Shown here: piece by piece, positions 20,880 to 46,209 of the stretch | Position numbering within the stretch: the first letter of the stretch is position 1 | Layout of the letters: each line of letters starts with the position of its first letter | NCBI GenBank assembly: GCA_964016885.1 | Contig: OZ024754.1 | Location: forward strand, 37,758,001-37,822,000 | Origin: Eledone cirrhosa | Lineage: Eukaryota | DNA: 64,000 nt | Direction: 5' to 3' | The notes under the pieces: model-generated | What the model saw: the letters and a program-made list of their open reading frames with translations, nothing else | What the model was told of the DNA's origin: nothing | The model's database searches: none | Translations under genes and position numbers: made by a program

Positions 20880-23800
20880 AAAATTTATTCGAATTTGTAG
20901 GGATATCCGACTAAATACATAATTCATTTTACAAGGATTTGCTACAAACAACATGGCTGAACGCAACAACACCAACAACATTAAGAAAGTAGAGAAGGAA
21001 AACAACAAGAGAGGTAAACAAAATTTACATACATACATACATACATACATACATACATACATACATATTTTATTCGAATTCGTAGAGGGATCTGACCAAA
21101 TACATTATTCATTTTACAAGGATTTACTACAAACAACATGGCTGAACGCAGCAAGACCAGCAACATTAAGGAAGCAGCGAAGAAAAGCAGCGAGAAAGGT
21201 AAACAAAATTTACATACATACATACATACAAACATCTTTTCGAATTCGTAGAGATATCTGACTAAATACATAATTCATTTTACAAGAATCTGCTACAGGC
21301 AGCAAGGCTGAACACAAGGACACCAAAATCATTAAGGAAGTACCGAAGAAAAAGAACAAGAAAGGTAAACAAAATTTACATACATACATACATACTTACA
21401 TCTTTTATTCGAATTCGTAGAGATACCCGACTAAATACATGATTCATTTTACAAGGATTTGCTACAAAGAGCCTGGCTAAACACAGCCTCAACAACATTA
21501 TGGAAGTACCGATCGAAAACAATGAGAAAGGTAAACAAAATGTACATACATACATACATCTTTTATTCAAATTCGTAGAGGTATCCGACTAAATACATTA
21601 TTCATTTTACAAGGATTTGCTACAAGCAGCAAGGCTGAACACAAGGACACCAAAATAATTGAGGAAGTACCGAAGAAAAAGGACAAGGAAGGTAAACAAA
21701 ATTTACATATATACACACATAACATCTTTTATTCGAATTCGTAGAGATACCCGACTAAATACATAATTCATTTTACAAGGATTTGCTACAAAGAGCCAGG
21801 GTGAACACATCCTCAACAACACTATGGAAGTACCGAACGAAAACAACGAGAAAGGTAAACAAAATGTACATACATACATACATCTTTTATTCAAATTCGT
21901 AGAGGTATCCGACTAAATACATTATTCATTTTACAAGGATTTGCTACAAGCAGCAAGGCTGAACACAAGGACACCAAAATAATTGAGGAAGTACCGAAGA
22001 AAAAGGACAAGAAAGGTAAACAAAATTTACATACATACACACATAACATCTTTTATTCGAATTCGTAGAGATACCCGACTAAATACATAATTCATTTTAC
22101 AAGGATTTGCTACAAAGAGCCAGGGTGAACACATCCTCAACAACACTATGGAAGTACCGAACGAAAACAACGAGAAAGGTAAACAAAATGTACATACATA
22201 CATACATCTTTTATTCAAATTCGTAGAGGTATCCGACTAAATACATTATTCATTTTACAAGGATTTGCTACAAGCAGCAAGGCTGAACACAAGGACACCA
22301 AAATAATTGAGGAAGTACCGAAGAAAAAGGACAAGAAAGGTAAACAAAATTTACATACATACACACATAACATCTTTTATTCGAATTCGTAGAGATACCC
22401 GACTAAATACATAATTCATTTTACAAGGATTTGCTACAAAGAGCCAGGGTGAACACATCCTCAACAACACTATGGAAGTACCGAACGAAAACAACGAGAA
22501 AGGTAAACAAAATGTACAGACATACATACATACATAAATCTTTCATTCGAATTCGTAGAGATACACGACTAAATACATTATTTATTTTACAAGGATTTGC
22601 TACAAACGGCATGGCAGAACACAACATCAACAACATTATGAAAATACCGAACGAAAACAATGAGAAAGGTAAACAAAATGTACATACATACATCTTTTAT
22701 TCGAATTCGTAGACGTATCCGACTAATACATAATTCATTTTACAAGGATTTGCTACAAAGAGCCTGGCTGAACACATCCTCAAGTACAGTATGGGAGTAC
22801 TGAACGAAAACAATGAGAAAGGTAAACAAAATGTACATACATACATATATCTTTTATTCGAATTCGTAGAGGTATCCGACTAATACATAATTCATTTTAC
22901 AAGGATTTGCTACAAAGAGCCTGGCTGAACACATGCTCAACAACACTATGGAAGTACCGAACGAAAACAATGAGAAAGGTAAACAAAATGTACATACATA
23001 CATATATCTTTTATTCGAATTCGTAGAGGTATCCGACTAAATACATTATTCATTTTACAAGGATTTGCTACAAGCAGCAAGGCTGAACAGAAGGACACCA
23101 AAATAATTGAGGAAGTACCGAAGAAAAAGGACAAGAAAGGTAAACAAAATTTACATACATACATCTTTTATTCGAATTTGTAGAGATACCCGACTAAATA
23201 CATAATTCATTTTACAAGGATTAGCTATAAAGAGCTTGGCTGAACACATCCTCAACACCACTATGGAAGTACCGAACGAAAACAATGAGAAAGGTAAACA
23301 AAATGTACATACATACATATATCGTTTATTCGAATTCGTAGAGATATGCGACTAAATACATTATTCATTTTACAAGGATTTGCTACAAGCAGCAAGCCTG
23401 AACACAAGGACACCAATATAATTGAGGAAGTACCGAAGAAAAAGGACAAGAAAGGTACACAAAATTTACATACATACATACATATATCTTTTATTCGAAT
23501 TCGTAGAGATACCCGACTAAATACATAATTCATTTTACAAGGATTTACTACAAAGAACCTGCATGAACCCATGCTCAACACGACTACGGAAGTACCGAAC
23601 GAAAACAATGAGAAAGGTAAACAAAATGTACATACATACATATATGTTTTATTAGAATTCGTAGAGGTATCCGACTAAATACATTATTCATTTTACAAGG
23701 ATTTGCTACAAGCAGCAAGGCTGAACACAAGGACACCAAAATAATTGAGGAAGTACCGAAGAAAAAGGACCAGAAAGGTAAACAAAATTTACATACATAC

Positions 23801-26082
23801 ATACATCTTTTATTCGAATTCGTAGAGATACCCGACTAAATACATAATTCATTTTACAAGGATTTGCTACAAAGAGCCTGGCTGAACACATCCTCAACAC
23901 CACTATGGAAGTACCGAACGAAAACAATGAGAAAGGTAAACAAAATGTACATACATACATATATCTTTTATTCGAATTCGTAGAGGTATCCGACTAAATA
24001 CATTATTCATTTTACAAGGATTTGCTACAAGCAGCAAGCCTGAACACAAGGACACCAAAATAATTGAGGAAGTACCGAAGAAAAAGGACAATAAAGGTAA
24101 ACAAAATTTACATACATACATACATATATCTTTTATTCGAATTCGTAGAGATACCCGACTAAATACATAATTCATTTTACAAGGATTTGCTACAAAGAGC
24201 CTGCATGAACCCATGCTCAACACGACTATGGAAGTACCGAACGAAAACAATGAGAAAGGTAAACAAAATGTACATACATACATATATCTTTTATTAGAAT
24301 TCGTAGAGGTATCCGACTAAATACATTATTCATTTTACAAGGATTTGCTACAAGCAGCAAGGCTGAACACAAGGACACCAAAATAATTGAGGAAGTACCG
24401 AAGAAAAAGGACAAGAAAGGTAAACAAAATTTACATACATACATACATCTTTTATTCGAATTCGTAGAGATACCCGACTAAATACATAATTCATTTTACA
24501 AGGATTTGCTACAAAGAACCTGGCTGAACTCATCCTCAACACCACTATTGAAGTACCGAACGAAAACAATGAGAAAGGTAAACAAAATGTACATACATAC
24601 ATATATCTTTTATTCGAATTCGTAGAGGTATCCGACTAAATACATTATTCATTTTACAAGGATTTGCTACAAGCAGCAAGCCTGAACACGAGGACACCAA
24701 AATAATTCAGGAAGTACCGAAGAAAAAGGACAAGAAAGGTAAACAAAATTTACATACATACATACATATTTCTTTTATTCGAATTCGTAGAGATACCGGA
24801 CTAAATACATAATTCATTTTACAAGGATTTGCTACAAAGAGCCAGGGTGAACACATCCTCAACAACACTATGGAAGTACCGAACGAAAACAATGAGAAAG
24901 GTAAACAAAATGTACATACATACATATATCTTTTATTAGAATTCGTAGAGGTATCCGACTAAATACATTATTCATTTTACAAGGATTTGCTACAAGCAGC
25001 AAGGCTGAACACAAGGACACCAAAATAATTGAGGAAGTACCGAAGAAAAAGGACCAGAAAGGTAAACAAATTTACATACATACATACATCTTTTATTCGA
25101 ATTCGTAGAGATACCAGACTAAATAGATAATTCCTTTTACAAGGATTTGCTACAAAGAGCCTGGCTGAACACATCCTCAACACCACTATGGACGTACCGA
25201 ATGAAAACAATGAGAAAGGTAAACAAAATGTACATACATACATATATCTTTTATTCGAATTCGTAGAGGTATCCGACTAAATACATTATTCATTTTACAA
25301 GGATTTGCTACAAGCAGCAAGGCTGAACACAAGGACACCAAAATAATTGAGGAAGTACCGAAGAAAAAGGACAAGAAAGGTAAACAAAATTTACATACAT
25401 ACATACATACATCTTTTATTCGAATTCGTAGAGATACCCGACTAAATACATAATTCATTTTACAAGGATTTGCTACAAAGAGCCTAGCTGAACTCATCCT
25501 CAACACCACTATTGAAGTACCGAACGAAAACAATGAGAAAGGTAAACAAAATGTACATACATACATATATCTTTTATTCGAATTCGTAGAGGTATCCGAC
25601 TAAATACATTATTCATTTTACAAGGATTTGCTACAAGCAGCAAGCCTGAACACAAGGACACCAAAATAATTGAGGAAGTACCGAAGAAAAAGGACAAGAA
25701 AGGTAAACAAAATTTACATACATACATACATATTTCTTTTATTCGAATTCGTAGAGATACCCGACTAAATACATAATTCATTTTACAAGGATTTGCTACA
25801 AAGAGCCAGGGTGAACACATCCTCAACAACACTATGGAAGTACCGGACGAAAACAATGAGAAAGGTAAACAAAATGTACATACATACATATATCTTTTAT
25901 TAGAATTCGTAGAGGTATCCGACTAAATACATTATTCATTTTACAAGGATCTGCTACAAAGAGCCTGGCTGAACAAATCCTCAACAACATTATGGAAGTA
26001 CCGATCGAAGACAATGAGAAAGGTAAACAAAATTTACATACATACATACATACATCTTTTATTCGAATTCGTAGAGGTATCC
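20880..26082 (+). repeat. Tandem array of 32 ~160-bp exon+intron units, with A/B alternation
   Basis: Unit: ttcattttacaag|GATTTGCTACA...AAAG|gtaaacaaaat(taca)n..ttcgaattcgtagag.tatccgactaaatac. Confidence 0.95.
20936..26022 (+). CDS. 32 putative 75/78-nt phase-1 exons encoding 25/26-aa repeats (GFATKSLAEHILNTTMEVPNENNEK / GFATSSKAEHKDTKIIEEVPKKKDKK)
   Basis: First exon 20936-21013, last 25948-26022. AG|...|GT boundaries in every unit, exon lengths only 75 or 78, no in-frame stop in the units translated; non-triplet indels are confined to the intron part. Confidence 0.7.
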
Positions 26083-46190: not shown

Positions 46191-46209
46191 TGGACTGCGG
46201 TTTTCATAA
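46191..46209 (+). CDS. SLC46-like copy 2, terminal exon with earlier stop (IGLRFS*)
   Basis: Same acceptor as 14440; GAA>TAA at 46207. Confidence 0.6.

Follow-up and report, generated by a model that had tools for sequence, protein, structure and literature searches.

A retrotransposon-derived array of exon-like cassettes as a candidate N-terminal tail of SLC46-like transporters in Eledone cirrhosa

Do the small, exon-like cassettes that stand in front of a family of transporter genes in Eledone cirrhosa belong to the proteins that those genes encode? The question is raised by a window of 64,000 nucleotides (C14:37758001-37822000, where C14 is contig OZ024754.1) in the 3.0-Gb genome of this species, for which a first-pass annotation had proposed an SLC46 transporter fused to a giant, modular N-terminal repeat domain. 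The window contains the end of copy C, and copies D and E, of a gene that occurs, in the 464 kb around it, as six plus-strand copies (A-F), accompanied by a divergent minus-strand paralogue and one pseudogene. We report that the repeated unit comes from a retrotransposon, and that its descendants in the arrays avoid stop codons in one frame while changing their amino acids in excess; that they are fused to the transporter as a functional N-terminal tail seems to us reasonably probable. The proposed fusion is plausible and gains from our tests of selection, but both of the main arguments first given for it fail. The argument turns on copy D, whose features are listed here by their positions in the window.

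20936..26022, plus strand: copy D array, 32 cassettes of 75/78 nt, phase 1-1, joined by (TACA)n
20953..20955, plus strand: first in-frame ATG of the array, which is the start codon of the retrotransposon open reading frame (ORF)
26072..26208, plus strand: remnant of the element ORF
30669..30670, plus strand: junction of a 23-nt deletion, from alignment to copy C; native acceptor and ATG removed
30674..30891, plus strand: exon of the first transmembrane segment (TM1 exon), predicted to start, in phase 1, at the AG exposed by the deletion
39187..40036, plus strand: transporter exon 2
40924..41007, plus strand: transporter exon 3, 84 nt
41718..41874, plus strand: transporter exon 4
46191..46209, plus strand: last coding exon, with a stop 9 codons before that of copies A, B, C, E and F

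The transporter part of copy D has five exons, including the 84-nt exon 3, which had gone unmentioned. In the array, all 32 cassettes are 75 or 78 nt long, bounded by AG and GT and open in one phase-1 frame, and the spacers between them measure 78-107 nt and vary in length by (TACA) steps. A continuous ORF across the spacers was ruled out, as their lengths change in 4-nt steps. Translated from its first ATG, the array gives 809 residues, of which 147 are lysine or arginine and 138 aspartate or glutamate, in agreement with the charged stretch of some 800 residues described at first pass. A profile search recovered 366 units in the arrays, every one of them on the plus strand (6, 241, 44, 32, 12 and 31 in copies A to F), among which there are 234 distinct cassettes. 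Arrays lie 5' of all six plus-strand copies, none follows the last copy, and they were found in this cluster only; the junction between unit and (TACA)n occurs 171 times genome-wide, in all 171 cases inside the cluster.

The unit itself also occurs singly on many chromosomes, with 1781 candidate places at first look. At each of 14 dispersed loci that were read, the match runs on into the same element, on both sides or downstream, at 88-91% identity, and most dispersed copies are preceded by (TACA)n. The array unit derives from the 5' end of this dispersed non-LTR (long terminal repeat) retrotransposon: each cassette is part of a 143-bp piece of that end and comprises 17 nt before the element ATG and about 20 codons of the element ORF. 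The first-pass annotation had not recognised this derivation. The element has one long ORF that starts MAEHN..., with an RVT_1 domain (Pfam, E=1.3e-17) downstream of the unit and, after the reverse transcriptase, a CCHC motif and a PD-x-D-like motif that were read by eye in translations of broken ORFs; Pfam gave no match for its endonuclease part. This single ORF with its order of motifs, together with the position of copies in (TACA)n, resembles the restriction-endonuclease-type R2/R4 (Dong-like) elements, among which we presume that it belongs. Our search of the literature for microsatellite targeting by Dong/R4 elements found no paper; a Dong element is reported in the repeat library of Octopus bimaculoides described in PMC9115989. 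Arrays of another unit can also arise from this element, as three tandem 752-bp copies of its 5' end at C2:62563157-62565112, on another contig, indicate.

This origin changes the weight of the exon-like marks. We compared the arrays with 36 dispersed copies, taken from 44 loci after removal of duplicates and incomplete copies; these were chosen as best matches and so are biased to low divergence. AG is present in 36 of the 36, GT in 34 and ATG in 32, and the 3-nt length variation also occurs among them, so that all four marks were already in the parent element, were inherited from it and by themselves carry no chance-beating signal. The good-context ATG at 20953 is indeed present, but it loses its force as an argument since it is the start codon of the parent element (the position is retained in 124 of 360 array units versus 32 of 36 dispersed copies). 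The splice signals, inherited in the same way, cannot be used to argue for array exons. Tandem repeats born of transposons are known (PMC6947457), and the array may be a neutral satellite of this kind, a retrotransposon piece lying in intron 1 and spliced out together with its inherited marks, with copy D a pseudogene without a start codon. A neutral satellite would be expected to take up mutations blind to frame and splice sites.

The mutations of the array cassettes do not follow this expectation. The comparison covered the 363 of 366 units that could be aligned over both boundaries, and 360 were placed on a spanning tree (six were dropped for gaps or partial alignment). Two of the 363 are disabled, one by a stop and one by a frameshift, both among 44 units that lack the donor GT, and none of the 319 units with GT is disabled, versus 7 of the 36 dispersed copies (five stops, two frameshifts), which gather stops freely; divergence per site is 0.157 in the array cassettes and 0.039 in the dispersed copies. 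A first stop test, with rates taken from the dispersed copies, was miscalibrated (5 stops in those copies versus 1.0 expected) and was replaced by a conditional test on stop-prone sites. With distinct events counted, the predicted frame has 2 stops versus 8.9 expected (P=0.002), and the other five frames give P values of 0.17-0.70; with all events counted, the predicted frame has 2 stops versus 21.5 expected. On the tip branches, the 317 intact units have no stop versus 7.9 expected in the predicted frame (P=9e-5), and a lack of any stop in these units, which carry 641 inferred changes, is not what drift predicts. Transversions that make a stop run at 0.13, versus 1.4-2.5 in the other transversion classes.

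The same cassettes change their amino acids faster than neutral sequence. Relative to the spacer, the synonymous rate in the array cassettes is 0.93 and the non-synonymous rate 1.54, and by the same counting the ratio of non-synonymous to synonymous rates in the dispersed copies is 0.96. In IQ-TREE, the 26 distinct cassettes of the window have a dN/dS ratio of 3.39 (likelihood-ratio test, P=2e-4). Eighty distinct cassettes drawn at random from the arrays give 2.15 (P=2e-5), and 34 dispersed copies give 1.19 (P=0.59). For the array, frame +1 gives 1.42 (P=0.035) and frame +2 gives 0.53 (P=3e-5); a low value of this kind is what an excess in frame 0 at the second position of codons would produce. 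The AG and GT positions took 6 changes versus 21.8 expected, yet no more than two changes were seen at 17 of 61 spacer sites as well. The contrast with the dispersed copies and the preference for one frame make it likely, in our view, that the array cassettes are translated. A drifting satellite accounts neither for a synonymous rate equal to that of the spacer beside a raised non-synonymous rate, nor for the conserved AG and GT; it draws on the sister copies that have their own ATG, on further private lesions in copy D and on the imperfect controls of the stop test, all of which are weighed below, and we regard it as unlikely.

If the cassettes are translated, the question becomes what they are joined to. 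The sequence bears out the first-pass description of the start of the copy D transporter: there is an in-frame TGA at 30634, an AG at 30672-30673 in phase 1 and no ATG before TM1, and joining 26022 to 30674 reads in frame into GQGGKKEQKKVTIRWF. The missing ATG had been taken as a sign of fusion, and this no longer holds, as it results from a 23-nt deletion private to copy D. Copies A, B, C and F keep a pyrimidine-rich acceptor of their own with an ATG 8 nt downstream, which opens a short N-tail (MSE...). An assembly error at this place was ruled out, with a contig (30609-30711) that bridges the deletion junction without differences in three of three DNA runs, all from one sample that is possibly the source of the assembly. 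These runs are genomic, with intron and exon covered alike, and have no bearing on expression.

The acceptor of the TM1 exon is in phase 1 in all five assembled copies, including the AG exposed in copy D, so that an in-frame fusion with the array is possible in each of them. Of the sequence that separates the array from the TM1 exon, all copies have in common only the roughly 97 bp that precede the acceptor; no other unique sequence is shared, and hence no common alternative terminal exon. As far as the sequence can tell, the TM1 exon is the only common downstream exon found. The tests of selection indicate translation and not its partner, and the cassettes could be exons of a separate, array-only protein that ends past the last donor in the element remnant, with the transporter made from its own ATG. 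In copies B, C and F the last unit does continue for about 40 codons into element sequence before a stop. In these three the read-through has left the frame of the element, in A and D it is wholly different, no shared terminal exon was found, and the arrays occur only in front of transporter copies; we hold such a protein to be improbable, and favour the fusion of the array exons to the transporter.

Several observations count against that fusion. The exon-like marks, the open frame included, are inherited from the element. Four of the five assembled copies have their own start and no need of the array, and the TM1 acceptor of the pseudogene, which has no array, is also in phase 1, so that the match of phases is older than the array and a one-in-three coincidence. 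Copy D carries three private lesions, namely the start deletion, a deletion at the array end and the early stop, and, even with a real family-wide fusion, could be in decay. The array acceptor, AAG with a short pyrimidine tract, is weak by the usual consensus, and 44 array units, mostly in the largest array, lack GT and are donor-dead. The homologue in O. bimaculoides, of 468 residues with exon 2 beginning at residue 91, has a short N-tail. Among the tests, two reverse frames are also depleted of stops when all events are counted (P=0.004 and 0.012), one of the five control frames, reverse +1, is depleted on the tips (8 versus 17.2, P=0.002), and under a cruder first model frame +2 is as depleted as frame 0 (P=0.0005). 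The 32 units of copy D alone have no stop versus 2.0 expected, which is not significant (P=0.10), and on the tips the non-synonymous excess is small (230 versus 195.5). The spanning tree used for the counts joins repeats that recombine and homogenise, which makes the events non-independent and the P values too small.

Some of these points lead to a weaker form of the fusion, in which the tail is real and merely tolerated: stops would be purged since they would abort the transporter, and the dN/dS above 1 would come from repeat conversion or from constraint at synonymous sites. Amino-acid change near neutral on the tip branches with stops absent, a copy number that spans 6 to 241 and the persistence of donor-dead units all suit such baggage. 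What it does not suit is the dN/dS above 1, which two methods give for the tree as a whole and which appears in every mutation class. We give it a small weight of its own, separate from that of the functional tail, and consider it quite improbable.

Other features of the arrays deserve description. At the end of its array, copy D lacks two final units and some 240 bp of element sequence that B and C possess; the basis for this deletion is the assembly only. Read-through of donor-dead units as a general rule was ruled out, as most of them meet stops or shift frame. One type of unit, SAIISKAEH... (C14:37658626-37743155), has lost the donor, with CT for GT, in 41 units, 3 of them also without AG; it is amplified within the higher-order repeats of copies B and C and carries the only stop and the only frameshift. 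The 241-unit array of copy B (C14:37692693-37713759) is built of higher-order blocks of about 2.3-3.8 kb, each of which includes a hairpin-shaped fragment of the element 3' end.

How could a retrotransposon piece have come to stand in this position? Upstream of the copy D array lie the following features.

18250..18440, plus strand: block U1, present once in each gene copy, with a donor-like CTG/GTAAGC at 18298/18299
19310..19600, plus strand: block U2, likewise present once in each gene copy, with a donor-like GTAAGT
19618..20689, plus strand: two fragments of the element 3' end, which end in (TACA)n and have 87-93% identity to downstream parts of two dispersed copies

U1 and U2 are two unique blocks found 5' of every array. 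Full-length matches to U1 occur in six places only (98-100% identity), and U2 has six near-full-length matches and one 65-nt fragment, all within the cluster. Either block is a candidate non-coding first exon or promoter, in which case, as a first exon, it would place the arrays in intron 1; alternatively, both could be just co-duplicated spacer DNA. We propose that the element inserted itself into intron 1, with U1 or U2 upstream as a non-coding first exon. Equipped from the start with an AG and a GT in the phase of the host acceptor, phase 1, and with an ATG of its own, the inserted piece could have been exonised at once. Unequal crossing-over via the (TACA)n spacers may then have multiplied the 143-bp unit, whose 75/78-nt cores are likely joined to the TM1 exon by splicing, as coding exons, to give a long, charged and length-variable N-tail. 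Under this model, copies A, B, C and F could make both a short form from their own ATG and long forms with up to about 150, 5100, 1070 and 690 residues of cassettes; copy D, having lost its short start, would depend on the array and its 809 residues. The predicted tail would presumably be cytosolic, given the topology of carriers of the major facilitator superfamily (MFS), and, judged from composition only, is probably disordered.

The full scheme is bolder than its parts, and we put it a little short of even: 25 codons of a still-recent retrotransposon would have been exonised and multiplied into micro-exons that now number in the hundreds and diversify. An SLC46-like family would thereby have gained, from scratch, a modular cytosolic domain of 150-5000 residues, the length and sequence of which alternative splicing could select, and one copy, by the loss of its start, would already be locked into the fusion. 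If true, a giant protein domain would here be observed while it arises de novo, and two known processes, retrotransposon exonisation and tandem exon duplication, would be combined on an uncommon scale, under selection that is diversifying and not purifying. The donor element still stands at well over a thousand candidate places, which provides the ancestral state and a neutral control in the same genome.

The transporter to which the tail would be attached is, on several lines of comparison, a divergent SLC46-like MFS protein. The top matches in the ESM Atlas carry MFS_1 at 0.98. The predicted structure is all-helical (predicted local distance difference test, pLDDT, 68), and the 50 Foldseek matches listed are MFS-type carriers, none at E<=0.001, with PCFT (7bc6) at the top (E=0.014, TM-score 0.58). 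The best named protein matches are SLC46A3-like and PCFT-like (E 2e-10 to 4e-10, 25-30% identity); among seven top matches looked up, three are SLC46A3-like or PCFT-like, one is an uncharacterised MFS protein and three are unnamed. A profile of the matches finds PCFT 7bc6 at E=2.8e-97, with the next at 9e-6, and is dominated by its other 12 rows. Searched directly with exon 2, Pfam and the PDB sequences gave no match. Nothing of near or greater length came out of word-indexed protein searches with the same exon, a weak negative, as these also missed the Octopus homologue of 41% identity. Among the 150 protein matches listed, the longest has 627 residues, and the architecture predicted here, if true, is absent among them. 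Over 366 codons, 59 non-synonymous and 11 synonymous variants separate the copies, with many of them in the loop that follows TM1; against neutrality this gives P=0.02-0.16, depending on the assumed transition bias. SLC46A2, SLC46A3 and a fly homologue are reported to carry muropeptides to cytosolic sensors (PMC11509177), and on that basis an immune arms race is no more than a reasonable guess. That the tail acts as a fast-evolving binding or decoy surface on the transporter, in an immune or toxin arms race, is a speculation that we hold weakly.

The window and its surroundings contain further parts of the cluster, of which the following complete copies C and E.

1809-2658, 4123-4206, 5378-5534 and 14440-14485, plus strand: copy C exons 2-5, with the array and the TM1 exon left of the window
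51539..54038, plus strand: copy E array, 12 cassettes, running into an assembly gap
55815-55898, 56670-56826 and 59171-59216, plus strand: copy E exons 3-5

The 44-unit array of copy C and its TM1 exon, which has an ATG, both lie left of the window. In copy E, a gap of 200 N at 54067-54266 falls between array and intron 2, so that the length of its array and its first two exons are not fixed by the assembly; the order of array and then transporter, which the first-pass annotation had seen to recur in its copy 3, our E, stands as to the 12-unit array and exons 3-5, and the TM1 exon and exon 2 are unassembled. An inverted, palindromic partial copy of exon 2, of about 160-330 bp, lies about 1 kb 5' of exon 2 (window 37945-38273, also 594-917); it is present in copies A-D, was not found in F, and could pair with exon 2 in the pre-mRNA as a substrate for editing or small RNAs. 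ORFs at 9714-11255, 12807-13844 and 35042-36797, inside transporter introns, resemble what we take to be pieces of Penelope/GIY-YIG-type retroelements.

Outside the window, the TM1 exon of the divergent paralogue (minus strand, C14:37627161 downwards) starts at an AG and contains an in-frame (KEENG)n repeat of about 120 residues; its donor after TM1 was not located. It has no in-frame ATG and would need an upstream coding exon, and its repeat appears to be a second, unrelated route to a charged N-tail within the family. The pseudogene (C14:37997144-37998801, minus strand) has stops and frameshifts in exon 2 and retains the acceptor and ATG of its TM1 exon. A separate tandem cluster at C2:305330294-305351301 contains three or more SLC46-like genes of the typical kind, which match MFS_1 and have short N-tails.

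A comparison with known systems highlights what is shared and what differs at this locus. Our literature search, on octopus SLC46 expansion, LOC106869723, cephalopod exonization and tandem exon duplication (judged by titles), and retrotransposon-derived tandem exons under positive selection, found no paper on this gene or arrangement. The closest protein found is LOC106869723 of O. bimaculoides (XP_014771055-57), which has 41% identity, the same exon blocks and a small acidic repeat in its N-tail; it differs in that its isoforms are of 455-494 residues, with a short N-tail and no cassette-like repeats. From the SLC46 family as known (PCFT/SLC46A1, SLC46A2, SLC46A3), the genes described here differ by their 25-30% identity, five exons and fast-changing tandem cluster, and by the predicted giant N-tail, where the PCFT match begins at residue 29; before TM1 the N-terminus is short where A, B, C and F start at their own ATG, and not in copy D or the predicted long forms. 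As in other exonised retrotransposons, we find retrotransposon-derived sequence, splice sites and phase compatible with the host, and frame selection (with one control frame also depleted). The nearest precedent is Lyosin, an isoform in which a coding exon derived from a long interspersed nuclear element is fused to a host gene (L1 ORF1p-MYL4; PMC12129022). In both cases a piece of a non-LTR retrotransposon ORF serves, or is predicted to serve, as a host coding exon in alternative to a shorter form. Lyosin has a single exon for a folded domain, reported to be under purifying selection and confirmed by RNA, whereas the system described here, known from DNA alone, has a 25-residue low-complexity piece of another element class, in 366 tandem units with dN/dS above 1. 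With the mini- and satellite repeats derived from transposons (PMC6947457) it shares a tandem array grown from a retrotransposon piece, and it differs from them in that its units show codon-level selection and conserved splice dinucleotides.

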